From NCBI GenBank assembly GCA_038044205.1, contig JBBTAN010000017.1, forward strand, positions 30,027 to 94,026: a stretch of 64,000 nucleotides of DNA, in the 5' to 3' direction. The stretch comes from Nanobdellota archaeon. GTDB taxonomy: Archaea > Nanobdellota > Nanobdellia > Pacearchaeales > GW2011-AR1. A program made the translations under genes and the position numbers. The notes beneath the pieces were generated by a model. That model did not search any database. It saw nothing but the letters and a program-made list of their open reading frames with translations, and had not been told where the DNA came from. Of this stretch, positions 23,087 through 59,336 are shown piece after piece; positions within the stretch are counted from its first letter, which is position 1; the number at the start of each line of letters is the position of its first letter.

Positions 23087-23650
23087 ATGGCACTCAATGA
23101 ACAGTTCAAGACAGAGCGAATTAAGCGTGGATTGAGTCAATGTTTGTTTGCCAGGGCACTTAATACAAATCAGGCTTATATTTCTATGATGGAGAGTGGA
23201 AAGAAACCTATTACTGAATCTGAATTTGTTGATATTCTGAAAAAGTTGACTGAATATGATGAAAGGATTAAAAATCCAGTTACCATTGCTCCAGTTGTTG
23301 AGAAGAAAGAAATTGTAATTGAGAAGGTTGAGAAACCTGATATTGTTGTTCCTATTTCTGAAAATGTTGAAATTGTTTATCATCAAAGAACTATTGAAGA
23401 GATGATAAAAGAATATAAAGACAAGGGGTATACTAATTTGCAGATTATGTGCATTGTCAATTCAAGTCGTTGGATTAAAAAGGCTAATGAATTTAGAAAG
23501 TTGTTGGGTATTGATACTATTGGCGTTGATGAAGCTGTAGAAGTTGAGGATAAGGAAGAAGTTAATGAAATTATTGAAGAAGATGTTTTTAACGAGAGTA
23601 TTGTTGAAGAAAATAACAATGAAATAGAAGAGACAGAGGAAATTGTGTAA
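23087..23650 (+). CDS. XRE/Cro-type helix-turn-helix protein with acidic tail
   Basis: KTERIKRGLSQCLFARALNTNQAYISMMESGKKPI is a classic HTH_3 pattern; no TTA codon seen. Confidence 0.8.
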   Translation: MALNEQFKTERIKRGLSQCLFARALNTNQAYISMMESGKKPITESEFVDILKKLTEYDERIKNPVTIAPVVEKKEIVIEKVEKPDIVVPISENVEIVYHQRTIEEMIKEYKDKGYTNLQIMCIVNSSRWIKKANEFRKLLGIDTIGVDEAVEVEDKEEVNEIIEEDVFNESIVEENNNEIEETEEIV

Positions 23651-23700
23651 GGAGAAATAAAATGAAATGGACTCGTTTCTTTCCTGTGTAATTTTCATTG

Positions 23701-23756
23701 TCAACCGCGATTTCTCCCCACCTAAAGGAAGGGAACTCCTCGCGGGAAGAGGTTGA
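23701..23756 (+). ncRNA. GC-rich nested hairpin with UAAA tetraloop, copy 2
   Basis: outer caacc/ggttg and gcga/tcgc; inner ccc/ggg; apex cc-taaa-gg; 3' ACTCC; covaries with copy 1. Confidence 0.45.
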
Positions 23757-23766
23757 AAATTTTCTA

Positions 23767-23801
23767 ATGCCAGGAAAGGCATAGAGACATGCAAGCATTC
23801 T
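23767..23801 (+). promoter_or_regulatory. degenerate motif-1 element (ATGCCAGGA-N20-CATTCT)
   Basis: one mismatch in the 9-mer. Confidence 0.35.
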
Positions 23802-23849
23802 CTATTGTGGTCCAAATTTTCGTGAAAGTAAAAGAAAAGGAGAAAGAAC

Positions 23850-24440
23850 ATGGAACAGGCTGTTAAATTTGATGCGAACAATATCAATTACACGGTTAAG
23901 CAATTGTGTGATGCTGTAAATGGAGTTTTTGTAAACAATAGTGATAAATATAACATCATTAATCATTTTTTGAATAATGAAATTGAAACTGCTCAATTGC
24001 ACGATATTATTACTGATACTGTTGAAAATGTTATTTCTGATTATAATTTCAGGTCTATCGTTAAAAACGTTATGCGAGATATGCCTACTGAAATAGTTAA
24101 TAGCGATGAAGTTGAATCTATTGTTGATGAAAAGATCAAGGAAATTGTTAACGATAAAAATGAGGCTATTCAGCAGACTATTGAAAATATTGCTGATGCC
24201 ACTCAAGATAATAGTAAAACTGTCAAAGATCTTAATCTTAAACTTGATGCTATCAATATTCGTATTGATAGACTTTATGCTTTGGATGTTATTTCTGCAA
24301 ATAAAACTGTAAAAGAGCTTACGAGTAAGCTTGATGCTGCCAATATGTGTATTGATAGACTCTATGCTTTGCTGAAGGAGAGCTATAAACTTATTGCCCA
24401 CTTCGATATGGAAAATAGTCCCAAGAAGAGGTTTGAGTGA
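23850..24440 (+). CDS. coiled-coil protein with internal repeat
   Basis: 196 aa; LKLDAINIRIDRLYALD / SKLDAANMCIDRLYALL repeat; no TTA, CTA or TCA codons across most of the gene. Confidence 0.7.
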   Translation: MEQAVKFDANNINYTVKQLCDAVNGVFVNNSDKYNIINHFLNNEIETAQLHDIITDTVENVISDYNFRSIVKNVMRDMPTEIVNSDEVESIVDEKIKEIVNDKNEAIQQTIENIADATQDNSKTVKDLNLKLDAINIRIDRLYALDVISANKTVKELTSKLDAANMCIDRLYALLKESYKLIAHFDMENSPKKRFE

Positions 24441-24444
24441 ACTA

Positions 24445-24471
24445 CCCTATGCTAAAGCCACAGGGCTTTCC
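24445..24471 (+). ncRNA. UAAA-tetraloop hairpin, copy 3
   Basis: ccct-at-gc-taaa-gc-cac-aggg followed by CTTTCC. Confidence 0.35.
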
Positions 24472-24490
24472 GGCGCTAAACGTCTGTAAT

Positions 24491-24535
24491 AAAGATCAGG
24501 TGATTTAGAAATTTACCACCTGATCTTTATTTTTA
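24491..24535 (+). terminator. rho-independent terminator-like hairpin
   Basis: 12-bp stem aaagatcaggtg / cacctgatcttt followed by a T-rich tract. Confidence 0.6.
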
Positions 24536-24546
24536 AGGAGTGAAAA

Positions 24547-24918
24547 ATGAGATTAACACCTGTGCAGAAGAAATTTCTTGATAGTTTAGAAGAAGAAATT
24601 ACAGATAAAGAAGATCGTTATGAAGAAGATCGTTACAAATGTAATATTGGCTGCGAAAAACATGAATGGCGCACTGCTGTTAGTTTACAAAAAAAAGGAT
24701 TGATAAAAATTACTTTGTCAGTTGATGATAAAGTTGGTATATATAATTATTTTGAGGTTCAGCTTGTTGATAGAAGAAAAAAGATAGAGTGTAGTTATAT
24801 TAATTCTTTTATTAGAGAACAAAGAGCTAAATCTTATTTAGATGCTGGTAAAAATCATGGCGAATATAATATTGGTGTTTTGGACACATTGAATGCACTT
24901 GAAGATTTCATTAAATAA
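24547..24918 (+). CDS. hypothetical protein, family J
   Basis: MRLTPVQKKFL..EWRTAVSLQKKGL. Confidence 0.65.
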   Translation: MRLTPVQKKFLDSLEEEITDKEDRYEEDRYKCNIGCEKHEWRTAVSLQKKGLIKITLSVDDKVGIYNYFEVQLVDRRKKIECSYINSFIREQRAKSYLDAGKNHGEYNIGVLDTLNALEDFIK

Positions 24919-24933
24919 AAAAGGAGTAAAAAA

Positions 24934-25239
24934 ATGAGATTAACACCTGTGCAGAAGAAATTTCTTAATAGTATAGAATATGAATTTATTAAAAATAATA
25001 CATTAGATACCAATGTTATGGTTGAGTGTTCTGGTTATGAATGGCGAACAGCAGTTAGTCTATCTAAAAAAGGATTGGTTAAACTTGATAGAGAAATCAC
25101 TGATAAAATTAGATCAAAAGATAAATTTAAAGTTAAAGTTGTAGATAATAATAATAATTTAAAAATGAGTCTTATTTTTTATTCTATTAAGGAATTACTT
25201 TCTGAACTTGAAAATATTATTAAAATAAATGGAAAATAA
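24934..25239 (+). CDS. hypothetical protein, family J
   Basis: first 33 nt identical to 24547; EWRTAVSLSKKGL. Confidence 0.65.
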   Translation: MRLTPVQKKFLNSIEYEFIKNNTLDTNVMVECSGYEWRTAVSLSKKGLVKLDREITDKIRSKDKFKVKVVDNNNNLKMSLIFYSIKELLSELENIIKINGK

Positions 25240-25241
25240 AA

Positions 25242-25424
25242 ATGAATATTATTTATAAAATTAAACAACTCATTGAGAAAAAGAGAGAAAATATAAAAAA
25301 CTGGGATGGGATGATTGGTATTGCAGATGATGCTGAAGCTTCTTATTATGAAGGTAAAGTTACTGAAGTTAAATCTTTTATTGAGGAACTAGAAGAAATT
25401 GTTAATGGAGAAAAAAATGGATAA
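25242..25424 (+). CDS. small helical protein, family K
   Basis: ASYYEGKVTEVKSFIEELEEIV. Confidence 0.55.
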   Translation: MNIIYKIKQLIEKKRENIKNWDGMIGIADDAEASYYEGKVTEVKSFIEELEEIVNGEKNG

Positions 25425-25611
25425 TGAAGATAAAATAAATGAAATAAAAAGATTAATTGTTCAGTTTGAAGGTACTCTTGAGTTGATGTCGCAAGTTCGT
25501 ACAGAATTTGATCTACAGCAAAATCTTATTCAAGGATCTTATTATCAAGGGAAAATAGGTGGTGTGGAGTCAGTTATTTCCGACCTGAAAAATATTATTA
25601 ATAAGGAGTAA
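25417..25611 (+). CDS. small helical protein, family K
   Basis: ATG 25417; GSYYQGKIGGVESVISDLKNII. Confidence 0.55.
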   Translation: MDNEDKINEIKRLIVQFEGTLELMSQVRTEFDLQQNLIQGSYYQGKIGGVESVISDLKNIINKE

Positions 25612-25615
25612 GTAA

Positions 25616-25837
25616 ATGGATATAATTAATGAAAATAAAATTAATGAAATTTGGATGGTTATAGGTAAATATAAACAACTTATTGATTGTTGGAAAGAAA
25701 TTAGCGAAGAAACTGAAGATCATGAAAAGGCATCTTATTATGATGGTAAAATCTCTACTGCTGAATCTTTTATTTCAGACCTAAAAGATATTCTAAAAGA
25801 AAATAAGGATATTGAAGAAATTCTGTGTGATGAATAA
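25616..25837 (+). CDS. small helical protein, family K
   Basis: ASYYDGKISTAESFISDLKDIL. Confidence 0.6.
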   Translation: MDIINENKINEIWMVIGKYKQLIDCWKEISEETEDHEKASYYDGKISTAESFISDLKDILKENKDIEEILCDE

Positions 25838-25852
25838 TAAGGAGTAAGTAAA

Positions 25853-26137
25853 ATGAATGGAACAATTGATTATCTTAAACTTTTTGAGGCATTTAAGACT
25901 CTGTGTAGGGATAGGAAACTGAAGAGTGTTAATGTTAAGGCAAGTGAGGATAAGCTTATTGGAGTATCTGTTACAATTAAGGTTGTTTGTAAGGATATGA
26001 ATAAAGCAAAGAGAGTGGTTGATTACGCTTTTAATGAGTCGCTAATGTCTGATTATTTTTGTATGATTAGTGCAAGCCAAATTTTTGCCGATATTTCTTT
26101 TGTCTGTGTGCCAAAGGAAAAGAATAATGACAGTTGA
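25853..26137 (+). CDS. hypothetical protein
   Basis: 94 aa with SD. Confidence 0.6.
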   Translation: MNGTIDYLKLFEAFKTLCRDRKLKSVNVKASEDKLIGVSVTIKVVCKDMNKAKRVVDYAFNESLMSDYFCMISASQIFADISFVCVPKEKNNDS

Positions 26138-26336
26138 CCAATTAATTCTTTTTATTTATAGATATGAAAATATTTATCCGTATATGAAATATCCTTATAG
26201 TGGATTTGAGGAAAATTTTAAATATCTTGCCGATCAGGGATTGATTGATTATGGAGACAAAAATTGGAAAATTACTGATGAAGGTAAAAAAGAAATAGAG
26301 AATATTTTAAATAGTTTTAAAAAGAATAAGGAGTAA
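26127..26336 (+). CDS. small hypothetical protein, possible winged helix
   Basis: ATG 26127; similar C-terminal half to 22487. Confidence 0.5.
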   Translation: MTVDQLILFIYRYENIYPYMKYPYSGFEENFKYLADQGLIDYGDKNWKITDEGKKEIENILNSFKKNKE

Positions 26337-26339
26337 GTA

Positions 26340-26714
26340 ATGAAAATTTACAACAAGAGGGAAATGGCTGATGTTGTTCTTTCTAGTCTTATTTCTATAG
26401 TTAAGAAATATAGAAATAAGAATCATATTGAAATTGGTTCTTATCAGAATGGTCGAGAACAAGGCCATTCTATTATTCTTTGGAATCAGGATAATTTTAA
26501 TAGTAAATGGATTGCTTTTTCTGAATATAGAAATTCAGATGAATTAGTTGTTTATGAAAGTAGACATGATCCTATGCAGGGATTAACTGATTCAGCCTGG
26601 GAAAATAAGAAATTTTATAATTTTGATAAAAAGGGCAAGGGATATAAGAATGCTATTGTTATCTTTGATATGATTAAAGAATTTTATACTGTAAAAGAAG
26701 TTGTGAATAACTAA
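26340..26714 (+). CDS. hypothetical protein
   Basis: 124 aa with SD. Confidence 0.65.
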   Translation: MKIYNKREMADVVLSSLISIVKKYRNKNHIEIGSYQNGREQGHSIILWNQDNFNSKWIAFSEYRNSDELVVYESRHDPMQGLTDSAWENKKFYNFDKKGKGYKNAIVIFDMIKEFYTVKEVVNN

Positions 26715-26730
26715 AAAAGGAGAAAATAAA

Positions 26731-27021
26731 ATGAATCTTAATTTTCAGTCAAACAAGTGCGTTAGTTGTGGTGAGGTTAATTTACCAAAGCATAATGAGT
26801 GTCACAAATGTGGTTTTGATACTGTTAATGGGAATATTAGAAAAATAGGAAAAATTATTAACGGTTATAGTGATGACGTTAATGGTGTTAGAGGATATGT
26901 TACTTACCTTCTTACTGATTTGCACTATTTTTGCAAGCACGAAAATTTAGACTTGAATGAACTTGTTACTGAAGCTGCTAGTAATTTTAATATGGAAATT
27001 TATAGTCAAAACTGTAAATAA
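26731..27021 (+). CDS. zinc-ribbon protein, family L
   Basis: CVSCGE..CHKCG..IRKIGKIINGY parallels 31348. Confidence 0.65.
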   Translation: MNLNFQSNKCVSCGEVNLPKHNECHKCGFDTVNGNIRKIGKIINGYSDDVNGVRGYVTYLLTDLHYFCKHENLDLNELVTEAASNFNMEIYSQNCK

Positions 27022-27042
27022 AAAAAGAAAAGGAGAAGTAAC

Positions 27043-28014
27043 ATGGCGCACGAACTTAGTATTACAAGGGAAGGTATTGTTGAGTTTGCTTGGTCTGGGA
27101 AGACGCCTTGGCATAATCTGGGCGTTAAGGTTGATGGATTGATGGATCCTATTCAGGCGCTTGAACAGGCTCATTTGAACTGGGATGTCAATCTTGTTCC
27201 TCTTACTATGCCTAATGGAAATGTTGTTCCTGATAAGCGGGCAAGTGTTAGGAGTGATACTGGGGCTTATTTGGGTACTGTCGGAACCCAATATACTCCA
27301 CTTCAGAATAAGGAACAGGCTGAGTTTATTAGAGATTTGATCGGAGGGACTGGAACTAAAGTTGAGTGTTGTGGTGCTTTGTTTGGTGGAAGTAAGACTT
27401 TCTGGACTGTTAGGGTTGGTGAAGATATTTATATCAAGCCGGAAGATTCTATTCAGCGTTATCTTATTGTTGCTAATGGCCATGATGGAAGTCTTTCGTT
27501 TAAAGCTTTCTGGTCTCCTATTCGTGTTGTTTGTAACAATACTCTTTCTATGTCTTTGAATAGGAAAGATAATGGTTTTTCTATTCGTCATAAGACTGGG
27601 GTTAAAGACCATGTTGAAGAGGCTAGGGAGATTTTGGGATTGACCGAACTTTATTACAAGAATTTGACTGAAAGTTTTCAGGCTATGGTAAATAAACAAC
27701 TTGATGCGGCTGGATATAAGGAGTATTTGGAATCTATCTTTCCTATTACTGATGGCAAGAAGATTAGTAAGCAACAGGCTGATATGATTCAGGTAATGAA
27801 TGTTAATTTTGAGTCTGGTCGTGGTGCTAATATTGCTGGAAAGACTGTTTGGGGTGCCATGAATAGTGTAACTGAATATATAGATCATCAAAAGAGATTA
27901 AATAAAACTGATGATGTTGTTGATGCTACTTCCCGTCATTTCGAGTCTGTTCTTTATGGACAGGGACAAACTATTAAGCAGAAGGCTTACGATAAGGCGC
28001 TGGCTCTAGTCTAA
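27043..28014 (+). CDS. DUF932 (phage/plasmid-like protein) family
   Basis: MAHELSITREGIVEFAWSGKTPWHNLG..ALEQAHLNWDV..ANGHDGSLSFKAFWSPIRVVCNNTL matches my memory of DUF932/TIGR03299; AAG, CTT and TTG codon bias. Confidence 0.8.
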   Translation: MAHELSITREGIVEFAWSGKTPWHNLGVKVDGLMDPIQALEQAHLNWDVNLVPLTMPNGNVVPDKRASVRSDTGAYLGTVGTQYTPLQNKEQAEFIRDLIGGTGTKVECCGALFGGSKTFWTVRVGEDIYIKPEDSIQRYLIVANGHDGSLSFKAFWSPIRVVCNNTLSMSLNRKDNGFSIRHKTGVKDHVEEAREILGLTELYYKNLTESFQAMVNKQLDAAGYKEYLESIFPITDGKKISKQQADMIQVMNVNFESGRGANIAGKTVWGAMNSVTEYIDHQKRLNKTDDVVDATSRHFESVLYGQGQTIKQKAYDKALALV

Positions 28015-28056
28015 TATATTTAATTTTCCAATTAATAGAAAAGGAGTAAAAAATGG

Positions 28057-28094
28057 ACAATTGATCCGATTGACTTTTTGAAATGTAGTATTGT
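28057..28094 (+). promoter_or_regulatory. motif-2 element (ACAATTGATCCGA-N19-TATTGT)
   Basis: sits directly on an orphan SD plus ATG (aaaaggagtaaaaaATGGACAATTGA); followed by AGAAGAGAAA. Confidence 0.5.
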
Positions 28095-28161
28095 AGAAGA
28101 GAAAAACAAAAATATAATTACATGGTGTTGTTATATTTTTGTAAAGAAAAAGGAGAAGAAA

Positions 28162-28434
28162 ATGGAAAAGAATGCTGTCAACATGTTGCCTCTTGTTATG
28201 TATCCTGAAAATGATATGTATCCTGATGAAAAGTATTCTCATATTATCATGATTGTTGAAACTCATTCTAAAAATAAGAAAGAACTTACAGATAATGCCA
28301 TGAAATTCCTCAAAGAACATAATTTCTTTGATGTTATGAAAAATGGGGATTTGTGCCAAGTTCTTGTAGCTAGTAATAAAATCCAACCTATGCAGTTGCC
28401 TATTAAACTCAAAGATGAAACAACTACTGTCTAA
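28162..28434 (+). CDS. hypothetical protein
   Basis: ATG 28162 after SD aaaaaggagaagaaa. Confidence 0.6.
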   Translation: MEKNAVNMLPLVMYPENDMYPDEKYSHIIMIVETHSKNKKELTDNAMKFLKEHNFFDVMKNGDLCQVLVASNKIQPMQLPIKLKDETTTV

Positions 28435-28491
28435 TATAAAAAATTATAAAATAAATAGGCAATAATATCGTGTCTCGCTGTATTATTGCCG

Positions 28492-28523
28492 ACAACCTCA
28501 TCATTGTGGTGAGGTTGTTTTAT
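28492..28523 (+). terminator. rho-independent terminator-like hairpin
   Basis: acaacctca / tgaggttgt followed by tttt; preceded by a second hairpin ggcaataata / tattattgcc at 28458-28490. Confidence 0.6.
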
Positions 28524-28648
28524 ATATTATTTTTATTTTTATTTTCCAGTCCACGTTTGCCGTAAATATAATATATTTTATTTTTATTATTTTTATTTTA
28601 TTATAATATATATTATTTATTTATATTTAAACAACAAAGGAGAAATAA

Positions 28649-29107
28649 ATGAAAGTGCGTTTGACGATTGATTTTGATTTAGGCGACAAATATAATGAAA
28701 AAGATTTTAATTTTTTGGAAGATAGATTACCTAAATATTATTTTTGTGATCCACATAGTAATCTTGCAGAAATGGCTATGGTTAATGGAATTCCTAAAAA
28801 AGATGAAACTATTGAGGATGTTGCTTGTTGTGAAAGTTCTCAAAAACATTACTTGGAAATGGTGCAAATAGCAGATACTGCTACCTGCAAATTTGAACAA
28901 ATAAAGGAGAAGAAAATGGACGCACAAGAAGCATTAAATATACTACGTAGAATAATCCATAAAGTTGATTATGATCATTCTGATATTTTATTCTATAACG
29001 CTAAAGAAGCTGTTGAAATTCTTACAAAAGAAATAAATAAACCAAAATATAAACCTGTTGATAATATTATTATTTCTACACCTACAACTAAATGGAAGAT
29101 TCCCTGA
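28649..29107 (+). CDS. hypothetical protein, family U N-terminus
   Basis: 152 aa; stop TGA 29105-29107 overlaps the ATG of motif 1. Confidence 0.65.
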   Translation: MKVRLTIDFDLGDKYNEKDFNFLEDRLPKYYFCDPHSNLAEMAMVNGIPKKDETIEDVACCESSQKHYLEMVQIADTATCKFEQIKEKKMDAQEALNILRRIIHKVDYDHSDILFYNAKEAVEILTKEINKPKYKPVDNIIISTPTTKWKIP

Positions 29108-29141
29108 TGCCCGGATAGGCATTTCCCTGCCTACTGATTAT
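29107..29141 (+). promoter_or_regulatory. motif-1 element (ATGCCCGGA-N20-GATTAT)
   Basis: exact 9-mer in a TGATG stop-start overlap. Confidence 0.55.
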
Positions 29142-29186
29142 AGATTGAAAATATAGAAAAGTAAGATAAAGAAAGGAGTAAGTAAC

Positions 29187-29885
29187 ATGTTGTCAGTTGA
29201 TAGTAAACAAGTAAATAATAAATGTATTATTTCTGCTGATTTTACAACTAATTGTCCAAGAAGGAGAAATGGAACTCCATGTAAATATTGTTATGTTGAA
29301 TCAAGTAGAAATAATAAATGGAATCCAAAACCAATTTCAGATTATTTGCCTTACACTGGTTGGGTAAAAAGAATAAGAAATCATACAAAATTTAAATTGA
29401 AAAAGGCTGGAGGATTGAGACTTTTTTCCTATGGCGATTACATGCCAGAACATGACAAAGATATTATTTTATTTTTGGACGACTGTTCCAAGTACAATGT
29501 AGACGTAAAGGTAATCACAAAACAGAGAGATTTTATCAAAAAATATCATAATCATCCAGCTATAAAAGTTATTCATATTAGTATAGATAATCTAAAAGAA
29601 AATGGATCTCATGTAAGTCATAAGTCTGCAAGGTTTTATAGAAATAAATATAAAAAAGTATTAGTTAGGTCTGTTGCTTGTAATTGGGATGATGTAAATA
29701 AATTTGGTAAAGCTAAATGGTGTGATATTATTACTTTGAATCATAAAATTATTCCAGGTAAAAGATTTCATTTATTTAGTAAAAATGAAAGGAAAGAAGC
29801 AAATAATATTTATCCAGGGAAGATATGCTGTATTACTAATCATTGTAATACGTGCAAAATTAAATGTAGAAAAAATAAGGAGTAA
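29187..29885 (+). CDS. Cys-rich protein, possible Fe-S enzyme
   Basis: 232 aa; CPRRRNGTPCKYC (Cx8Cx2C) near the N-terminus and CCITNHCNTCKIKC at the C-terminus; function not established. Confidence 0.65.
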   Translation: MLSVDSKQVNNKCIISADFTTNCPRRRNGTPCKYCYVESSRNNKWNPKPISDYLPYTGWVKRIRNHTKFKLKKAGGLRLFSYGDYMPEHDKDIILFLDDCSKYNVDVKVITKQRDFIKKYHNHPAIKVIHISIDNLKENGSHVSHKSARFYRNKYKKVLVRSVACNWDDVNKFGKAKWCDIITLNHKIIPGKRFHLFSKNERKEANNIYPGKICCITNHCNTCKIKCRKNKE

Positions 29886-29888
29886 AAT

Positions 29889-53042: not shown

Positions 53043-53077
53043 ATGCCCGGAGCAAATCGCTCTCAATGCCCTATTAT
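53043..53077 (+). promoter_or_regulatory. motif-1 element (ATGCCCGGA-N20-TATTAT)
   Basis: motif 2 follows 16 nt later. Confidence 0.6.
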
Positions 53078-53093
53078 TCGTTATAGGCCAATT

Positions 53094-53131
53094 CCAATTG
53101 ATCCGAATAAACATAATTTTCTTTTTATTAT
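53094..53131 (+). promoter_or_regulatory. motif-2 element (CCAATTGATCCGA-N19-TATTAT)
   Basis: the hexamer abuts the SD gaaaggag of ATG 53147. Confidence 0.5.
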
Positions 53132-53146
53132 GAAAGGAGAATAAAA

Positions 53147-53518
53147 ATGAAAATTTCAACATGTAATGTAAAATTAAATGGAGTAAGGTCGATAACGAAT
53201 AAAATATTAAAAGAATATGATTTGCCAGACATTAAAAGTATCAATGAAGGAGATTGTTATCGTTGGGCATGGGGATTTTACAAAAAATACGGTGGAACTC
53301 TTTGCACTGTAAGTTTCTATAATTATGGATTTGGTCATGCTTTCATTAAAATAAATAATAAATATTATGATGCGGAAAGTCCTAATGGAGTAAAGGATTG
53401 GAGAAATTTAAAATTATGGCCCAATGCTCCTATATCCGAAAGACAATATAATAATTTAAAAAATAAAAGAGTAATGAGAATGACAGTTGCTGAATATAGA
53501 AAATTTTGGGACTTTTAA
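53147..53518 (+). CDS. hypothetical protein, possible Cys-His peptidase-like fold
   Basis: GDCYRWAWGF..GFGHAFIKINNKYYDAE pattern; weak. Confidence 0.6.
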   Translation: MKISTCNVKLNGVRSITNKILKEYDLPDIKSINEGDCYRWAWGFYKKYGGTLCTVSFYNYGFGHAFIKINNKYYDAESPNGVKDWRNLKLWPNAPISERQYNNLKNKRVMRMTVAEYRKFWDF

Positions 53519-53530
53519 TGGAGGATAAAA

Positions 53531-53983
53531 ATGTCTATTACTTTTGATAAATCTATTGAGAATAAAGTAATAGAAATGTTAGATAGAGGACCAATTGATC
53601 TTATTATTTCAAGGATTTTAGAAGTATGGAATCCTTTTGATATATTAATGAGTAAAAATTTAGAAGAAGTTAAAATTGATGTATTGCACTATATAAAAAA
53701 CAAAGATTTCCAGAGAAAATATTTAGAAAATATATTTGGTTTAAATGAAAATTATATTAGAGATCTTAATTATGATATTCGCAGAATAGCTTGGTTTGTA
53801 TATAACGGTTGGGAAGATGCTGTAGATATTGATGTTGGCATAAATGGATTTGATACCAGATTTATTTGCCATGACGGCAATCATAGGTTGTGTGCGGCAA
53901 TAATAAAAGGAGATAAGACTATTAAAGCAAAAGTTAGTGGAGGTTGTGATATTATTTCTTATTATTGTGGATTAGTTGACTAA
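53531..53983 (+). CDS. ParB/Srx-like nuclease-domain protein
   Basis: FICHDGNHRLCAAIIKGDKTIKAKV matches the DGxHR core of ParB-like nuclease domains. Confidence 0.6.
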   Translation: MSITFDKSIENKVIEMLDRGPIDLIISRILEVWNPFDILMSKNLEEVKIDVLHYIKNKDFQRKYLENIFGLNENYIRDLNYDIRRIAWFVYNGWEDAVDIDVGINGFDTRFICHDGNHRLCAAIIKGDKTIKAKVSGGCDIISYYCGLVD

Positions 53984-53995
53984 AAAGGAGAATAA

Positions 53996-54277
53996 ATGAA
54001 TAAAAATTATTATGATATTCGTATTTCTATTTTATTGGAAAAGAAAAATAATATAAATGATATTATTTTTATATTAAATAGATTTTGTTCTGATTTTTCT
54101 TCAAAGGAGACAGAAGAGGGATTGGTTGTCAATTTTAAATCATTTCCCAGTTATTTAGAAGATAAAGATATTGCCACTGGGTTGAAGGATATTATTTTTG
54201 AGACTAATGGTAAACCTTGTAAAATTGAGATGATTTTTATCCATACTAAACAAGTAGAAAATAATTTCTTTTTCTAA
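53996..54277 (+). CDS. small protein, family D (1 of 6)
   Basis: YYDIRISIL..NGKPCKIEMIFIH. Confidence 0.6.
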   Translation: MNKNYYDIRISILLEKKNNINDIIFILNRFCSDFSSKETEEGLVVNFKSFPSYLEDKDIATGLKDIIFETNGKPCKIEMIFIHTKQVENNFFF

Positions 54278-54287
54278 AGGAGAAAAA

Positions 54288-54581
54288 ATGAATAAATTTT
54301 ATAGAATTCATATTACTGTGAAAGATTTGCCAAAAGATAGAATTTCTATTATTTTTGATAAATTGCAGGAATATCACTGGTCTTTTTGCTTAAACGATGA
54401 TGATATTTATCTTGATAAAGATATTTGTTATATATATTATTATACAGTAGAAGATGTATCTATTGTATATCCTCCTGAAGCTACCGAAGAAACAATTAAA
54501 ACAAGATTGAAAAATATTATAACTAATGATAATAAATATTTTTATGAGATAAATATCGTTTTGGAACAATGCAGTTGTTAA
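54288..54581 (+). CDS. small protein, family D (2 of 6, most divergent)
   Basis: FYRIHITV..; same size and position in the array. Confidence 0.55.
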   Translation: MNKFYRIHITVKDLPKDRISIIFDKLQEYHWSFCLNDDDIYLDKDICYIYYYTVEDVSIVYPPEATEETIKTRLKNIITNDNKYFYEINIVLEQCSC

Positions 54582-54603
54582 AACAAAAAAGGGAATAAAT
54601 AAA

Positions 54604-54888
54604 ATGGACAAAAATGAATATGAAGTTTCTATTGATATAGAATTTGAAGAAAATGATCGCGAAATAAGTATTGGATGTGCTTTAAAAAAGATTAGTAAAA
54701 CTTTTGCTTTTTATGGCGGGAATAATAAATTTAGAGCTTTCTCTATGTATGTAGAATCATATTTACTTGACCATGAACTTGCTGAATCAATTAAAAATGC
54801 TGTTTGGGACGCCAATAGAAGAAAATGTAAAATTGATATTAATATTTCTCATAGAGTATATAATAATTTTTCTTATGAAAGTAAATAA
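54604..54888 (+). CDS. small protein, family D (3 of 6)
   Basis: EYEVSIDI..NRRKCKIDINISH. Confidence 0.6.
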   Translation: MDKNEYEVSIDIEFEENDREISIGCALKKISKTFAFYGGNNKFRAFSMYVESYLLDHELAESIKNAVWDANRRKCKIDINISHRVYNNFSYESK

Positions 54889-54902
54889 AAAGGAAAATAA
54901 AA

Positions 54903-55205
54903 ATGAGAACGACTTTCAATATTGATAATATTCATAATTATGAAATAAGTATTGAAACTAAAGATGATATTCAATTTGACTTTATTTCAGAATCATTGAA
55001 GAAGTTTGGAAAATTTTATAGCAATAAATATAAAGATAATTTTGGAGGAAATTGGTATTCTGAAGGGATTTATACAGATCTTACAAAAGAGAATTTGCTT
55101 AAAGATATACGACAAACTATTTTTACTGCAAATAATCAATCTTTTGCTGTGGATATTATGATTACGTTCAATGTTAGAGAGACATATAGCTTTGATTCTT
55201 GGTGA
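54903..55205 (+). CDS. small protein, family D (4 of 6)
   Basis: NYEISIET..NNQSFAVDIMITF; stop TGA overlaps the motif-1 ATG. Confidence 0.6.
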   Translation: MRTTFNIDNIHNYEISIETKDDIQFDFISESLKKFGKFYSNKYKDNFGGNWYSEGIYTDLTKENLLKDIRQTIFTANNQSFAVDIMITFNVRETYSFDSW

Positions 55206-55239
55206 TGCCCGGAAAGAGTTTGTACAGGGTAAGTATTAT
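55205..55239 (+). promoter_or_regulatory. motif-1 element (ATGCCCGGA-N20-TATTAT-N5-GTGGC) embedded in a coding start
   Basis: exact 9-mer; the same nucleotides encode MPGKSLYRVSIIYCGK of the family D gene. Confidence 0.5.
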
Positions 55240-55525
55240 CTATTGTGGCAAAATTATGGTTAAAGGTGCAGATGAAAAAATGATTGGTGATATTTTTTCT
55301 AATTTGAAAAATTATATTACTTCCATCAATATGAATGAAACTAAATTTGGATTATATTTTTATGCTAATAAGTTCTCTACGGAATTTGATAAAAAACAAT
55401 TGTCTGAACTTCTTTATTGTAGAATCAATAGTATCAATGGAAAACCCTGCGATATTGAATTTTTTATTTCTCATAGTATTACAGATAGGTTTTATTTTCC
55501 TCTCCCTCAAAAGAAAGAAAAATGA
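55205..55525 (+). CDS. small protein, family D (5 of 6), apparently starting on the motif-1 ATG
   Basis: the homologous N-terminal strand LYRVSIIY (compare HYRVSVRII in 55809) lies upstream of the internal ATGs 55256 and 55280; NGKPCDIEFFISH. Confidence 0.55.
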   Translation: MPGKSLYRVSIIYCGKIMVKGADEKMIGDIFSNLKNYITSINMNETKFGLYFYANKFSTEFDKKQLSELLYCRINSINGKPCDIEFFISHSITDRFYFPLPQKKEK

Positions 55526-55794
55526 AAATGAAAAAGAAATTGTATTTGTATAAAATTTGGATGGATGGTGATGCTGGTTGGGACGAATATGATTCTGCTG
55601 TTGTTTGCGCTGAAAATGTAGGTGAAGCTAAAAGAATTCATCCTGGCGGTTATCCTTTTAATAGGCGCACTGACAAGTGGGAACATAATTATGGTTGGAC
55701 AACTGATCCTAATGATGTCCAAGTTCAGTATATTGGAGTTGCAAATAAAGATATGGAACCAGGTGTTGTAGTTGCTTCTTTTAATGCCGGTTAA
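55522..55794 (+). CDS. hypothetical protein, family A
   Basis: YDSAVVCAENVGEAKRIHPGG..VQVQYIGVANKDMEPGVVVASF. Confidence 0.65.
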   Translation: MKMKKKLYLYKIWMDGDAGWDEYDSAVVCAENVGEAKRIHPGGYPFNRRTDKWEHNYGWTTDPNDVQVQYIGVANKDMEPGVVVASFNAG

Positions 55795-55808
55795 AAAAAG
55801 GAGAGAAC

Positions 55809-56099
55809 ATGGAAAGTGAAAATCATTATCGAGTTTCAGTTAGAATTATTAATTTTAATGTAAATAAAGCATTATATATTCTTTCTTTTCTTTATGATTG
55901 TGAATTTACTATTTCTTGTAACACTACCCCTGCTATCTATGGATATAAAGAAGATTATTTTTCTCTTTGTGCAAATGAAAGTAATATTGCTGATAGTATT
56001 AGTAAAGAAATACTTAAAGCAAATAATGGTCAGTGCGATATCGAGATTGATATTTATACAAAGACTGAAAAGAAATATTCTTTTAAGGACAAGGAGTAA
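55809..56099 (+). CDS. small protein, family D (6 of 6)
   Basis: HYRVSVRII..NGQCDIEIDIYT. Confidence 0.6.
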   Translation: MESENHYRVSVRIINFNVNKALYILSFLYDCEFTISCNTTPAIYGYKEDYFSLCANESNIADSISKEILKANNGQCDIEIDIYTKTEKKYSFKDKE

Positions 56100-56102
56100 G
56101 AA

Positions 56103-56306
56103 ATGGAACTTCGCAGGTTAGGCAAGGAAGAAGTAAAAAACGATACTTTTCTTTTAGATCTTCCTATTGTTTGTGAAGGGAATCAAGATGCTATTGAATC
56201 TATGATTAAACAAATGGGTTTGAAGTGGGTGAGTGATAATAGTATTTATGGCGGTTATTGGGTTGATACCCATATCGGAGAGAAAACTTGTTATCTGCCC
56301 ACCTGA
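56103..56306 (+). CDS. hypothetical small protein
   Basis: 67 aa with SD. Confidence 0.55.
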   Translation: MELRRLGKEEVKNDTFLLDLPIVCEGNQDAIESMIKQMGLKWVSDNSIYGGYWVDTHIGEKTCYLPT

Positions 56307-56325
56307 TCTTTTTAAGGAGTAAATA

Positions 56326-56568
56326 ATGAAAGGGATTTCTGCTGAAAAGAAAAAGAAATATATAAAATCAACTGGTGGTTTTTGTATTTATTGTGGAAAG
56401 AAAAAGTTGGTGGTTGGTCCAATTTATTTTTATAGTTATGGAATTTTTAGAACAGTTATTTGTAGTTCTTGTAAAAAATTGTGGGAAGATAAATTTATTT
56501 TATCCAATGTTGTTGATTTGGTGGAAGATGAAAAGAAAGTAAGTAAAAAACAAAAAAGGAGTAAGTAA
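56326..56568 (+). CDS. zinc-ribbon protein, family N
   Basis: CIYCGK..CSSCKKLWEDKFILSNV. Confidence 0.6.
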   Translation: MKGISAEKKKKYIKSTGGFCIYCGKKKLVVGPIYFYSYGIFRTVICSSCKKLWEDKFILSNVVDLVEDEKKVSKKQKRSK

Positions 56569-56569
56569 C

Positions 56570-57286
56570 ATGAACGATGTTGAAATTGATGAGACTGTTG
56601 AGAAGATCAAGGAATTTTCCAATAAGGGTATCCCTTGTTATGTTTGGGGTAGGATTACTGGACCTTATTCTGGTTGTTTTTATCTTAATGTTATTGGTAT
56701 TGTGAAAGATGATAAGTGTTACGTAACCGCTGAACTTAATTCTTATCTTTCTTACAAGCAGTATGTCGCCCCTTCTGATTACAAGTCTGATTATCTTACA
56801 GTTGGTTGTGTAAAAATTGAAAATATTGAGGATGTTTTGGGAAGGGGTTATAGGGAGATTAAAGTTAAGCCCCTTACTGATATTGTTGAGGATGTTCCTT
56901 ATGCTTGTGTTGGACAGGTTATTGATATGATTGATGACCTTGGTTATGATAGGCCGGAAGGATTTGTTTGTAAGTGTTGCGATACCCCTTTTGAGGATAA
57001 GGATGATGTTATGTATCTTGAGGGAGAGTTTAGAGGCAATGGTGGTATTGGTATTGAAGTTGGTGCGCCAGTTTGTCAAAACTGCTATTTGGAACGTCAT
57101 TGTTCTTATTGTGGGGAGGAAATTGAAATTTATCAAGGGGATCTTGATGAGGATAGTCATTGTATTTATTGCTGCAAGGAAAAGATTTGTATTAAGTGTG
57201 GAGAAAAAATTAAAATTGATTGGTATAATAAGGAAAAGGATGTTGAGAATTTTATAAAGGGAATCTGTAGCGATTGCGCGGAGTAA
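56570..57286 (+). CDS. multi-zinc-finger Cys-rich protein
   Basis: 238 aa; CKCCD, CQNC, CSYCG, CIYCC, CIKCG and CSDC pairs; about 197 codons without TTA, CTA or TCA. Confidence 0.7.
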   Translation: MNDVEIDETVEKIKEFSNKGIPCYVWGRITGPYSGCFYLNVIGIVKDDKCYVTAELNSYLSYKQYVAPSDYKSDYLTVGCVKIENIEDVLGRGYREIKVKPLTDIVEDVPYACVGQVIDMIDDLGYDRPEGFVCKCCDTPFEDKDDVMYLEGEFRGNGGIGIEVGAPVCQNCYLERHCSYCGEEIEIYQGDLDEDSHCIYCCKEKICIKCGEKIKIDWYNKEKDVENFIKGICSDCAE

Positions 57287-57298
57287 AGGAGAGAAAAC

Positions 57299-57466
57299 AT
57301 GAAAAAGATTTTTATTGAAGTTAAAGGTGGAGTTGTTACAGGAGTTCTTACTGATATAGATACCAACCTTGATGTTATTGTTGTTGATTATGACAATGAC
57401 GATAAACCTATTCTACAAGTGCGAGAGGATTTTATCAAAGAAAATACAACTCATTATATCTACTAA
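57299..57466 (+). CDS. hypothetical small protein
   Basis: 55 aa, SD aaaggagagaaaac. Confidence 0.5.
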   Translation: MKKIFIEVKGGVVTGVLTDIDTNLDVIVVDYDNDDKPILQVREDFIKENTTHYIY

Positions 57467-57474
57467 CCATAAAG

Positions 57475-57500
57475 GCCAAACTTTAATTAGTTTGGCTTTT
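57475..57500 (+). terminator. rho-independent terminator-like hairpin
   Basis: gccaaact-ttaatt-agtttggc followed by tttt. Confidence 0.6.
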
Positions 57501-57532
57501 AATTATAGAGGCTAAATAAAAAAGGAGAACAA

Positions 57533-57908
57533 ATGCCAGAGAAATGTCTATTTAATAAAAAATATAAATTATATTATGTAAAAGATAATATTATTATCTA
57601 TGGCCCTCATGATAAATTAATAAATACGGATAATATATATGGTGATTGTTCTTTTATTTTTGGAGATGCGAAAAATATATACGGAACAGTTACTAATTTG
57701 ATTGGGGATGTTACAGGTTCTTCTGGAGATGTAACTTATAATTGGAGATGTTACAGGTATTAATGGAGATTTTAGTGGGCTTGAAGGAAAAATTAATTAT
57801 ATTTCTGATGAAGAAAGAAAAAATGGAATATCTGTTGAGGATTTATTGAAAGAAGAAAGAGAAAATAGAAATTGTTTGTCTCAAATAATGAAAGGAGAAA
57901 GTAAATGA
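57533..57908 (+). pseudogene. GD-repeat protein split by a frameshift
   Basis: ..IYGDCSFIFGDAKNIYGTVTNLIGDVTGSSGDVTY then stop; the repeat continues as LIIGDVTGINGDFSGLEGKIN.. in the +1 frame, open from 57735 and ending in an ATGA overlap with 57905. Confidence 0.55.
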
Positions 57909-58111
57909 ATGATAGATTTCTTGAGAAGAGGCTTCAGCTTTACAATAGATATTTAGTTAGAAAGTTACAAGGATTTTATTGGAGAGATGGGTTTTGGGGT
58001 AAAAGATCTTTTAGAAAATTATATCCTGTTGGCAATAAAAATAAAGGAACTCATTGCAGAACTATTAATTTTATTCATATTGAAAAGTATTGGGAATCAA
58101 GGAGTAAGTAA
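57905..58111 (+). CDS. hypothetical basic protein
   Basis: 68 aa. Confidence 0.55.
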   Translation: MNDRFLEKRLQLYNRYLVRKLQGFYWRDGFWGKRSFRKLYPVGNKNKGTHCRTINFIHIEKYWESRSK

Positions 58112-58411
58112 ATGAATTATAGTAATATTAGTAATGATGAATGGTCCGCTACTAAACATATTAGAAATGCTAAATTCAATTATGAATTAGCGGTATTTGA
58201 ATTCATGCGAGATAAATGGATTCTTGATCCTAAATATAAAAATAAATTTATTGCTATTCATAATGGAAAGATAATTGCTATTGGGGATGATTTTGTTGCT
58301 CTTGCTAGAGAAGTAAGAGATTTATCAGAGATAGAAGGACCAATTCCTATTTGTTTTGTTGAGGAAAAGAATAATATAGAACATTTTGATGGAACAGTAT
58401 TGTCGAATTAA
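58112..58411 (+). CDS. hypothetical protein (DUF5678-like pattern, weak)
   Basis: NKFIAIHNGKIIAIGDDFVALAREV. Confidence 0.6.
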   Translation: MNYSNISNDEWSATKHIRNAKFNYELAVFEFMRDKWILDPKYKNKFIAIHNGKIIAIGDDFVALAREVRDLSEIEGPIPICFVEEKNNIEHFDGTVLSN

Positions 58412-58433
58412 AAATAGTGAAAGGAGTAAGTGA

Positions 58434-58727
58434 ATGAATAAAAGTGATTTTCTTGGTCTTGTTTCTTCTTCTGTGGACAATAATCCTGATTGGGTGAAGG
58501 ATATTATGTCGGCTATATCTCTTGCTATTACAGATAAATATGAGAAAGAAATGAATAAAAAAGCAATTGCTGATGTTGCTATTTGTCATTTGATGAATGA
58601 AAAAATTAACTCTGAAAAGATCAATGCTTGGGGTCGAAGAGTTATTGTTAAAGCTATTAATGATGGTAGTTTTGGCGGGACTGAATGGGCAACTGAAATA
58701 ATTGAAAAGTTGACTAAAAAGGAATAA
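58434..58727 (+). CDS. hypothetical protein
   Basis: 97 aa with SD. Confidence 0.6.
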   Translation: MNKSDFLGLVSSSVDNNPDWVKDIMSAISLAITDKYEKEMNKKAIADVAICHLMNEKINSEKINAWGRRVIVKAINDGSFGGTEWATEIIEKLTKKE

Positions 58728-58730
58728 AAA

Positions 58731-59051
58731 ATGAACGATTATAAGACTGTTGTTGTATTTAGAAAGTTGAAAGATAGTGGAGATATTCTTGCTTTGTTCC
58801 CACAGGAGTATTCTGATATTACTGGAAATCTTTGTTCTTCTTTTGAACATGTAGGCGGTCATGGTGGGGCTGATTATTCTCATTGTATTAAGCAAACTCT
58901 TCCTTGTAATCCTGCTGAATATGAAGATACCAAAAACGAACTAGAAAAAATTGGATATGATCTTATTATTAAAAATAGTTCTCGGCCAAATAGAGATAAA
59001 AAGATCAGGTTGAGGGAATTGAAAGAATTGGACCTTAATAGGAGTAAGTAA
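58731..59051 (+). CDS. hypothetical protein
   Basis: 106 aa with SD. Confidence 0.6.
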   Translation: MNDYKTVVVFRKLKDSGDILALFPQEYSDITGNLCSSFEHVGGHGGADYSHCIKQTLPCNPAEYEDTKNELEKIGYDLIIKNSSRPNRDKKIRLRELKELDLNRSK

Positions 59052-59336
59052 ATGAATAATAATTATATTATTAGACTGAAAGATCTTTACAATGAAACTG
59101 TAGTGGCTATTGCAAAGAAATGTATGAATACTACTGATAATGTTTTCCCTGAAGTGCGAAACTATATTGGAGGTTCTAAAATGACAGCATTGGTAGTTCT
59201 TGCTTGTTGTATGAATAATAATTACTCTGATGTTTATGATGATATTGATCGTGCTATCTATTCTATGTCCACTGATGTAATGCAATCTATAGCCAATTGT
59301 TATTCTAATTCTATTGTTTGTTTTGGAAAGGAGTAA
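59052..59336 (+). CDS. hypothetical protein, family R
   Basis: LKDLYNETVVAIAKKCM..MTALVVLACCMNNN. Confidence 0.6.
   Translation: MNNNYIIRLKDLYNETVVAIAKKCMNTTDNVFPEVRNYIGGSKMTALVVLACCMNNNYSDVYDDIDRAIYSMSTDVMQSIANCYSNSIVCFGKE

Follow-up and report, generated by a model that had tools for sequence, protein, structure and literature searches.

Graded avoidance of A-ending codons in a 64-kb, tRNA-encoding region of a probable huge phage genome

Features of the 64-kb window

The subject of this analysis is the uneven use of codons ending in A among the genes of a 64,000-nt stretch of DNA (GenBank contig JBBTAN010000017.1, positions 30,027 to 94,026), referred to below as the window. The window has a G+C content of 29% and carries approximately 158 small genes, densely packed and all located on the plus strand, plus four tRNA genes called by ARAGORN. 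Recognisable products are ClpP, ankyrin-repeat proteins, a helix-turn-helix (HTH) regulator, a DUF932 protein, a helicase-like fragment, an RNA ligase and ArdA. Codon usage changes between positions 22741 and 22830, a change point which had been overlooked by an earlier first-pass annotation of this DNA, and the genes on its two sides are referred to here as blocks A and B. Usage of A-ending (A3) codons is given as observed/expected. The features on which the analysis turns are as follows.

97..22741, plus strand: block A, 50 small genes rich in A-ending codons, located around all four tRNA genes; A3 observed/expected 1.20, third-position A 0.394
22030..22486, plus strand: non-coding gap of 457 nt just before the change point, with a duplicated hairpin element and one TGCCCGGA copy at 22403
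22830..64000, plus strand: block B, 108 genes with fewer A-ending codons, including those for DUF932, RNA ligase and ArdA
2627..2717, plus strand: tRNA-Leu, anticodon UAA (reads UUA); ARAGORN, Rfam tRNA 54.9 bits
6510..6586, plus strand: tRNA-Lys, anticodon UUU (reads AAA); ARAGORN, Rfam tRNA 59.6 bits
13478..13556, plus strand: tRNA, anticodon CAU, elongator Met or Ile2 (lysidine type, would read AUA); ARAGORN, Rfam tRNA 61.6 bits
15152..15223, plus strand: weakly supported tRNA-like sequence, anticodon UAU (would read AUA); ARAGORN only

Usage of A-ending codons in individual genes

The first-pass annotation had divided the genes into two classes, one saturated with TTA, AAA and ATA, the codons read by the encoded tRNAs, and one almost free of them, for which five genes were named. 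The counts behind this division were reproduced. Gene 27043-28014 is free of TTA, CTA and TCA over its first 283 codons, the first TTA being codon 286 and a CTA standing at codon 322, and none of the three codons occurs anywhere in 36999-37730, 56570-57286 or 23850-24440 (238 codons in 56570-57286 and 196 codons in 23850-24440). Gene 41000-41530 has neither TTA nor ATA, and its AAG and AAA codons were counted at 18:1, close to the earlier hand count of about 20 to 1. As calculated from the Leu and Ser content of each protein and the codon usage of its ordinary neighbours, the chance of finding no TTA, CTA or TCA ranges from 2e-7 to 2e-3 per named gene. The example given for the opposite class, 7606-7935, is indeed rich in the tRNA-read codons (TTA for 6 of 7 Leu, AAA for 13 of 18 Lys and ATA for 5 of 14 Ile). 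The description "almost free of AAA" did not hold, with 20 AAA to 11 AAG in 36999-37730 and 10 to 7 in 23850-24440; AAA is reduced in the depleted set, not absent.

Variation between genes is well beyond chance. The fraction (TTA+AAA+ATA)/(Leu+Lys+Ile) is heterogeneous over the 158 open reading frames (ORFs; chi2 547, 157 degrees of freedom), and for A-ending codons as a whole, with amino acid content controlled, squared z-scores add up to 975 over the 158 genes.

The real axis of this variation comprises all A-ending codons, that is, GCA, ACA, AGA, GAA, TCA, CTA and GTA together with TTA, ATA and AAA. An avoidance limited to the codons read by the encoded tRNAs is not what the genes display, as the five named genes show an equal depletion of A-ending codons outside the set by which they had been picked. 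When compared with the other genes at 23-64 kb, their share of GCA is 0.02 against 0.23, of ACA 0.06 against 0.31, of AGA 0.17 against 0.54, of GAA 0.52 against 0.80 and of CCA 0.11 against 0.32. To avoid circularity, the A-ending share of each codon family was also regressed on that of all other families, over all genes and within block B. The slopes obtained were 1.4-1.8 for TTA, 1.1-1.2 for AAA, 1.0 for ATA, 1.05-1.2 for GTA, 1.1-1.2 for TCA, 1.0-1.1 for ACA, 0.8-0.9 for GCA and 0.3 for GGA. Every A-ending family but GGA thus loads on the common axis (slopes about 0.7-1.8), and TTA alone is clearly steeper than the other A-ending codons.

Within-amino-acid correspondence analysis gave the same picture. 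Its first axis holds 17% of the inertia (the second 6.6%) and has a correlation of 0.99 with the A3 score, and the 13 most positive loadings are all those of A-ending codons. Within block B, the usage of A-ending codons that have a cognate tRNA in the window follows the usage of those that do not (rho 0.52). A follow-up built on TTA, AAA and ATA alone would overlook both this axis and the boundary at 22.8 kb.

Three tiers of codon usage and the block boundary

The genes fall into three tiers, not into the two clean classes proposed earlier. In block A, TTA makes up 46% of Leu codons, ATA 42% of Ile codons and AAA 82% of Lys codons. The ordinary genes of block B (n=90) have an A3 observed/expected of 1.01 and a third-position A of 0.304, and 18 low-A3 genes scattered among them have values of 0.52 and 0.164, with extremes of 0.13-0.21 in 35003-35185, 41000-41530 and 47602-48144. 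The change point between the blocks persists when these 18 genes are left out (chi2 about 100), and their removal lowers the A3 dispersion within block B from 6.0 to 2.2. Beyond the window, A3-rich usage is also found in eight minus-strand genes and a tnpB gene just upstream, and the ordinary usage of block B runs on for at least 8 kb downstream; the A3-rich style may be the default of the genome.

The shape of the distribution bears on the division into classes, as the first-pass annotation had itself named unimodality as grounds against its model. The histograms are unimodal with a long, heavy lower tail. For the three cognate codons a single beta-binomial distribution describes the genes as well as two (difference in Bayesian information criterion, dBIC, -3.5), and for all A-ending codons a minor component of ~10% of genes is weakly preferred (dBIC +5.7 and +3.5). 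Bimodality is therefore not established, while the heterogeneity itself stands.

The gap at 22030-22486 contains two copies of an element consisting of a hairpin TTAGATATATAGT ... ACTATATATCTAA followed by a second hairpin. The hairpins are perfect, of 13-14 bp, and lie at 22036-22080 and 22178-22220, 142 nt apart (fold z = -4.8). The gap matched no Rfam family at the gathering threshold.

The low-A3 genes

The 18 low-A3 genes are listed below with their A3 observed/expected and z-score where these were taken singly.

23087..23650, plus strand: HTH_3 regulator (Pfam HTH_3 1.7e-6); 0.70, z = -4.0, TTA 0/9
23850..24440, plus strand: function unassigned; 0.58, z = -4.7; hairpin and T-run downstream by eye
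25853..26137, plus strand: one of six milder genes, z between -2.6 and -4.1
27043..28014, plus strand: DUF932 family (Pfam DUF932 3e-52); 0.44, z = -8.2
31348..31635, plus strand: perfect AAAAGGAGTAAGTAAC-ATG leader; 0.45, z = -4.4
31961..32758, plus strand: TGCCCGGA motif ahead at 31876; 0.71, z = -3.9, TTA 0/15
35003..35185, plus strand: extreme, 60 aa; 0.13, z = -4.9
36999..37730, plus strand: perfect leader; 0.61, z = -5.1; no TTA, CTA, TCA or ATA
41000..41530, plus strand: most extreme, 49% GC, Ala/Lys-rich, without full-length homologues (ORFan); 0.15, z = -10.2; third-position C (C3) 0.18
46832..47035, 47324..47563 and 47602..48144, plus strand: cluster of three genes; 0.33, 0.64 and 0.21; z = -4.0, -2.7 and -9.2
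56570..57286, plus strand: Cys-rich, perfect leader; 0.44, z = -7.2
35274..35816, 44659..45060, 45388..45582, 45849..46091 and 58731..59051, plus strand: the other milder genes, z between -2.6 and -4.1

With a median length of 156 aa, these genes exceed their neighbours (94 aa), and their G+C at codon positions 1 and 2 is also higher (0.39 against 0.33, p = 1e-5). Few of their products could be assigned. Pfam and PHROGs searches of the biased genes returned only DUF932, the HTH domain, a helicase-like fragment and a weak zinc ribbon, and a sequence search of the PDB found nothing. The best relatives found for the DUF932 protein are 32-40% identical and occur in GC-rich genomes, 36999-37730 has 35 homologues in phage-like contigs, and 35003-35185 has a weak, sub-threshold match to INT_rpt (Pfam E = 0.012). 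Both 41000-41530 and 47602-48144 are ORFans, with no full-length homologue among 5.8 billion clustered proteins and, in the case of 41000-41530, none among 1.8 billion representatives. Residues 80-153 of the latter product align to P0047, a protein of 4333 aa, in 21 separate places (E = 3e-13), which marks this C-terminal part as one copy of a repeat domain that is so far uncharacterised. The AlphaFold2 models obtained for the two extremes had mean confidence (pLDDT) values of 56 and 39 and were too poor for fold comparison.

Hairpins follow several of these genes. An 18-bp, terminator-like hairpin (35191-35234) stands directly after 35003-35185, a 12-bp hairpin (41551-41577) follows 41000-41530, and the cluster at 46832-48144 is ended by a G+C-rich terminator at 48150-48177 with 11 pairs, 8 of them G-C. 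Just upstream of 41000-41530, two consecutive genes each have the 16-nt sequence TTTAGCGGTAGAAAAA immediately behind the stop codon (40491-40507 and 40857-40873), with repeated ACTTGT(A/G) units after it; this may be a regulatory region. The predicted proteins of the window as a whole are rich in Cys (2.3%) and Trp (1.6%), and many CxxC pairs are present in several small proteins, e.g., that of 56570-57286.

The encoded tRNAs

All four of the tRNAs previously reported (UAA, UUU, UAU and CAU) were called by ARAGORN, and those for Leu-UAA, Lys-UUU and CAU were confirmed as genuine by the Rfam tRNA model at 55-62 bits. The Ile-UAU call was missed by that model even at E<=1. It does fold as a cloverleaf (fold z = -1.9) with a canonical T-loop (UUCAAUU), and its oddities are a D-arm whose 5-bp stem closes a 5-nt loop lacking GG, a 7-bp anticodon stem with no spacer before it, a 3-nt variable loop and a G3-G69 mismatch. 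The call is doubtful. The CAU tRNA has a G1-C72 pair and an anticodon stem with just two G-C pairs at its base, and is not an initiator. Among its other pairs are C4-G69 and C5-G68, which we take to be determinants for TilS in Escherichia coli tRNA-Ile2; this is a lead rather than a test, by which the CAU tRNA, if of the Ile2 type, would read AUA too. Calling these molecules phage tRNAs is an assumption, and a genome of 500 kb may encode tRNAs beyond those seen in the window and its flanks.

The cognate codons are heavily used in the window, AAA at 76, ATA at 26 and TTA at 20 per 1000 codons, and are listed first, third and fifth among the A-ending codons by count. AAA is present in 157, ATA in 132 and TTA in 117 of the 158 genes. 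The tRNA-Lys(UUU) gene (6510-6586), the RNA ligase gene (51762-52970; PF09414, 1e-25) and the ardA gene (60752-61279) lie within this one 64-kb region.

Antisense reading frames

Four long ORFs lie opposite low-A3 genes, each in register with the sense codons.

26947..27891, minus strand: codon-aligned antisense ORF of 314 aa, a by-product
36885..37718, minus strand: codon-aligned antisense ORF of 277 aa
56495..57160, minus strand: codon-aligned antisense ORF of 221 aa
23802..24401, minus strand: codon-aligned antisense ORF of 199 aa

The first-pass annotation had regarded these ORFs as by-products of codon avoidance, and this view is upheld, as they follow from the absence of TTA, CTA and TCA in the sense frame. 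They have an atypical third-position C of 31-38% (7% in real genes), no Shine-Dalgarno sequence in any of the four cases and a TTG or GTG start in three. That they are instead real overlapping genes, with TTA, CTA and TCA avoided under selection to keep them open, is scarcely credible. In its favour, four codon-aligned ORFs of 199-314 aa lie in a genome of 29% GC, and the three codons taken together are more strongly depleted in the low set (0.11) than control NNA codons (0.37; p about 3e-6). The extra depletion, however, comes from TTA alone (0.04); CTA (0.28) and TCA (0.14, 3 observed) do not depart from the range set by ATA (0.27) and GCA (0.30). The composition and starts of the ORFs also speak against coding, and there is no other convincing minus-strand gene in the window. 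Selection for an open antisense frame was ruled out, given that TTA but not CTA or TCA goes beyond the general depletion.

Restriction of the shift to in-frame third positions

Third-position A falls from 0.394 in block A to 0.304 in ordinary block B genes and 0.164 in low-A3 genes, while positions 1 and 2 barely differ. In intergenic DNA, A moves in the opposite direction, from 0.379 in block A to 0.426 in block B. Measured against position-specific composition, TTA in the low set is found 2 times in frame 1 where 20 are expected, 164 times in frame 2 where 148 are expected and 75 times in frame 3 where 101 are expected, the last being a mild depletion. As the shift is confined to in-frame third positions and is not seen at positions 1 and 2 or between genes, it acts on codons. 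Because the depletion is limited to the reading frame, a sequence-level avoidance of TTA or TA, such as that of a nuclease site, was ruled out, and a general depletion of A in the mRNA was ruled out by the unchanged positions 1 and 2.

The A that is lost is replaced by T in four-codon boxes and by G in the purine boxes of Lys, Glu, Gln and Arg. Low-A3 genes keep their third-position T (0.47-0.61 against 0.51). In two-codon pyrimidine boxes the low set has a higher C/(C+T) (0.153 against 0.109, p = 2e-4), and the CGT share of Arg is 0.21 against 0.10. This codon-specific pattern fits selection on translation.

Intergenic motifs and other non-coding elements

Two conserved intergenic motifs occur along the window. 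The G+C-rich TGCCCGGA is present in 12 exact copies, all on the plus strand and none on the minus strand, and 11 of the 12 are intergenic. It is often fused to the preceding stop codon (tgaTGCCCGGA), with TTTTC-rich sequence ahead of it and TATTAT ~20-21 nt after it, and from this arrangement it looks like a phage-specific promoter or processing site. There is no link between TGCCCGGA and codon class. The second motif, TTCCAAyTGATCCGA, has eight exact copies, with a T-rich tract and either TATTAT or TATTGT downstream. Several copies of the two motifs lie 55-130 nt from each other (20405/20464, 39187/39244, 53044/53099 and 11811/11940).

11003, 11811, 20405, 22403, 29108, 31876, 39244, 45773, 49101, 53044, 55206 and 61336, plus strand: copies of TGCCCGGA
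1924, 7550, 11940, 12396, 20464, 28062, 39187 and 53099, plus strand: copies of TTCCAAyTGATCCGA

A sigma-70 promoter scan of the window gave nothing above background in this AT-rich DNA, and the TGNTATAAT pattern is not enriched. Another non-coding region, the 405 nt at 3533-3937, is locally G+C-rich. Units of the form "ACTATTATT...TTTTCTTTTT" recur in it, and two 19-nt arms (3537-3555 and 3655-3673) form an inverted repeat with 95% complementarity. The region, which gave no Rfam match at the gathering threshold, may represent a non-coding RNA or a group of regulatory elements.

Origin of the sequence

The window lies within a contig of 499,814 bp that comes from groundwater (0.1 um fraction, Hainich well H43; ENA ERZ1292626). 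Identical proteins are held by NCBI (MEK6832583 to MEK6832724) under a metagenome-assembled genome (MAG) labelled "Nanoarchaeota archaeon". Judging from its gene content, the window probably belongs to a huge phage that was wrongly binned as an archaeal MAG. This reading is drawn from a ClpP of bacterial type (57-66% identical to bacterial ClpPs), from ArdA and DUF932 together with the arrays of small same-strand genes, and from one window gene whose homologues lie in contigs with DnaB, primase, PolA, HNH and LAGLIDADG genes.

No close phage relative of the window was found in GenBank or IMG/VR, and near-identical DNA is absent from the phage collection. Three window proteins searched in IMG/VR had no relatives, and a scan of JGI metagenomes returned only an unrelated contig of 58% GC. 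Compared with all public assemblies, the window has two base differences, T in place of A at 11770 (Lys to Asn in an ankyrin gene) and at 25489 (Thr to Ser in 25417-25611). With other assemblies of the same phage identical except at these two bases, polymorphism is uninformative for the codon analysis.

The tnpB gene mentioned above encodes an IS605-family protein (OrfB_IS605 and Cas12f-like TNB domain; L004 7629-8711, minus strand) and lies outside the window, ~80 nt to 1.2 kb ahead of position 1, where it separates the upstream genes from the long plus-strand gene array. No close relative of TnpB from which a host might be deduced is present in reference genomes, and the ClpP matches at 57-66% identity are spread over many phyla and are uninformative in this respect.

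Interpretation of the codon bias

We consider the best explanation to be a graded translational selection, directed against codons dependent on a tRNA whose wobble position 34 is U (U34) and strongest in a minority of probably well-expressed genes, a reading in which belief and doubt are about evenly matched. It starts from what is observed, namely the heterogeneity between genes, its restriction to in-frame third positions, its generality over A-ending codons and the block boundary; that host tRNA supply is the cause and that the biased genes are highly expressed is what we infer. The default usage would be A3-rich, as in the tRNA-bearing block at 1-22.7 kb and the genes upstream, with moderate depletion from 22.8 kb onward. 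In some 18 scattered genes the depletion would be strong, NNA giving way to NNT in four-codon boxes and to NNG for Lys, Glu, Gln and Arg, with somewhat more NNC and CGT. Genes translated fast or abundantly would thereby use the codons of abundant host tRNAs (those read by G34 and C34 anticodons), and the encoded tRNAs, all for codons made up of A and U, would top up the supply for the heavily used TTA, AAA and ATA. TTA, which tends to be the rarest codon for Leu in hosts without an AT-rich genome, has the steepest gradient.

In favour of selection, the increases in CGT and in NNC codons of pyrimidine boxes resemble classical codon optimisation. A number of hints also agree with high expression. 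Shine-Dalgarno pairing appears slightly stronger in low-A3 genes (-7.6 against -6.3 kcal/mol), a marginal difference (p = 0.057). GGAG at fixed spacing precedes 44% of low-A3 genes and 9-10% of genes elsewhere, and the perfect AAAAGGAGTAAGTAAC-ATG leader is found three times, in each case at a low-A3 gene. Strong hairpin terminators stand directly after 35185, 41530 and 48144. Such leaders, pairing strengths and terminators are as expected of strongly expressed units.

A number of points weigh against selection for host-preferred codons. Which codons the host prefers is itself presumed, the searches with TnpB and ClpP having left the host unplaced. No product of the low-A3 genes is recognisable as a structural or otherwise abundant protein, and ORFans make up the two most extreme cases. 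There is some circularity in the leader test, its consensus having been derived from the low-A3 genes themselves, and the Shine-Dalgarno energy test, which is independent of that consensus, is the marginal one. Orthologues of 36999-37730 rank low in A3 only in the three closest of five other phage-like contigs (3/38, 8/46 and 8/33) and not in the two more distant ones (27/28 and 16/21). In addition, to our knowledge, highly expressed genes of low-GC Firmicutes do not show a uniform avoidance of AAA, GAA and CAA, so the explanation needs a host with C34 isoacceptors. The idea that older, conserved genes are simply better adapted was ruled out, the most biased genes being ORFans.

The model put forward by the first-pass annotation has two translational regimes, in which A3-poor genes would be read by host tRNAs alone (e.g., just after entry) and A3-rich genes would need, or be boosted by, phage tRNAs; we regard it as possible but on balance doubtful. 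All four tRNA genes do lie within the block that uses their codons most (cognate fraction 0.589 against 0.389), and between the blocks the purine boxes with a tRNA in the window shift more than those without (pooled odds ratio, OR, 2.54 against 1.34, p = 4e-6; TTR 3.1 and AAR 2.33 against CAR 1.63, GAR 1.32 and AGR 1.2). The block shift of ATA is 2.87 compared with 1.87 for other NNA codons (p = 9e-4), and TTA is depleted ~25-fold in the low set (2 observed, about 49 expected) compared with ~2.7-fold for control NNA codons. It also fits this model that typical early or anti-defence genes (ArdA, DUF932, HTH regulator) are found in block B and that a structured non-coding element stands just upstream of the boundary. 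However, GTA (OR 2.76) and CTA (2.44), for which there is no tRNA in the window or its 8-9 kb flanks, shift like ATA and TTA, and the block shift tracks the second codon base (NTA > NCA, NAA > NGA) more than the presence of a tRNA, AAA alone exceeding its context. Between low and ordinary genes, AAA (4.6) and ATA (4.4) behave like AGA (4.1) and GCA (4.1). The low-A3 genes stand singly, scattered among ordinary genes on one strand, unlike a temporal module, and the two blocks share identical promoter-like motifs, which are not associated with codon class. Of the four tRNAs one is in doubt, and, since any host already decodes TTA, AAA and ATA, dependence on phage tRNAs would be at most quantitative. 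What survives of the proposed tRNA link is that the tRNA-bearing block is richest in cognate codons, that TTA has the steepest gradient and that AAA stands above GAA, CAA and AGA between blocks, and what does not is its specificity for these tRNAs. In sum, there is a general A3 axis, to which TTA adds an effect of its own and AAA a small one at the block level.

Explanations other than translation fare less well. A neutral, transcription-linked mutational asymmetry, by which A would be lost and G and T gained on the coding strand of heavily transcribed genes, agrees with the replacement of A by G and T, with a strong G>C skew over the whole plus strand and with the resemblance of several biased genes to discrete transcription units with their own terminators. 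We nevertheless think it decidedly unlikely, as positions 1 and 2 and intergenic DNA do not track the shift and TTA is depleted in frame only. The change in four-codon boxes is mostly from A to T, a transversion, and GGA is nearly exempt where GCA and ACA are hard hit, which makes the pattern codon- rather than base-specific. Foreign origin, the biased genes having been acquired singly from GC-richer donors and not yet having drifted to the composition of the phage, is very unlikely. It would suit the higher G+C at positions 1 and 2 (0.39 against 0.33), the 49% GC and C3 of 0.18 in 41000-41530, and the finding of DUF932 relatives mostly in GC-rich actinophages and one contig of 58% GC. Against it, only A is replaced and third-position T is kept (0.47-0.61 against 0.51), the genes bear the same or an even more stereotyped phage-type leader, and they are scattered without flanking mobility genes. 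The closest DUF932 relative, at 40% identity, is far too diverged for a donor signature at synonymous sites, and no full-length homologue of the two most extreme genes turned up in the very large protein collections searched. The earlier suggestion of a recently acquired module is likewise not supported, the genes being single and scattered, with a T-rich third position and two ORFans as the most extreme cases. A long shot is counter-defence, with the A3-poor genes forming a "U34-independent" set that could be translated when host immunity cleaves wobble-U tRNAs; the encoded tRNA-Lys, tRNA-Leu and tRNA-Ile, together with the RNA ligase, would then restore translation of the remaining genes.

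If selection on translation is correct, the tRNA pool of the host would be weighted towards readers of NNT and NNG, with little of the Leu-UAA isoacceptor. Nearly all the small genes of this 500-kb phage are without known function, including the two most biased ORFans, and if A3 avoidance tracks expression, it would offer a pointer, from sequence alone, to the most strongly expressed genes of an uncultivated phage.

Comparison with known systems

The phenomenon is not new; this is a new instance in an unusual, poorly sampled genome. The analogy previously drawn with bldA in Streptomyces does not carry over. As in that system, TTA gives the sharpest contrast and a dedicated tRNA-Leu(UAA) gene is present. 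In Streptomyces, however, TTA is very rare and confined to a small regulon, whereas here it is common, making up 31% of Leu codons and occurring in 117 of the 158 genes. The logic is also inverted, the exceptional set being the genes that lack TTA, and any dependence on the tRNA would be at most quantitative.

Closer parallels are found among phages. For phage T4, Kunisawa in 1992 reportedly matched the codon usage of gene groups to the phage-encoded tRNAs. In Shigella phage Sf14, codon differences between gene groups have likewise been linked to phage tRNAs (PMC12482277). These phages share with the window the location of tRNA genes in one region, the unequal use of cognate codons by different groups of genes and the proposal that one group leans more on the phage tRNAs. 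They differ in that their temporal classes are known, the tRNA-favoured group being the late genes, whereas the groups described here are known only from sequence; in addition, three or four tRNAs are visible here and the bias reaches codons for which no phage tRNA is visible.

The conflict between phages and tRNA-cleaving immunity offers another comparison. PARIS-type and PrrC-type nucleases act on tRNA-Lys(UUU), and anti-restriction proteins trigger PARIS. Window tRNA-Lys(UUU), ArdA and RNA ligase are of types that all act in such conflicts (PARIS, and PrrC with repair by Rnl), and counter-defence by phage tRNAs has been described for T5 tRNA-Lys against PARIS (PMC11464382), for anticodon-loop variants (PMC10264068) and for retron evasion (PMC11555353). 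The difference is that a link to codon usage is speculative in the present case, coming from gene content.

The broadest precedent is that of Lucks et al. (2008; PMC2266997), who found non-random codon landscapes, with host-preferred codons in some genes, in 33 of 74 phages. As in those phages, codon usage here is non-random along the genome after control for amino acid content, with bias both at the level of blocks and in specific genes. There, the genes concerned encode head and tail proteins and the host is known, whereas here they encode small proteins, without an assigned function, in a non-structural region, and the axis is one of A3 against third-position T and G rather than of G+C at third positions (GC3) or the codon adaptation index (CAI).

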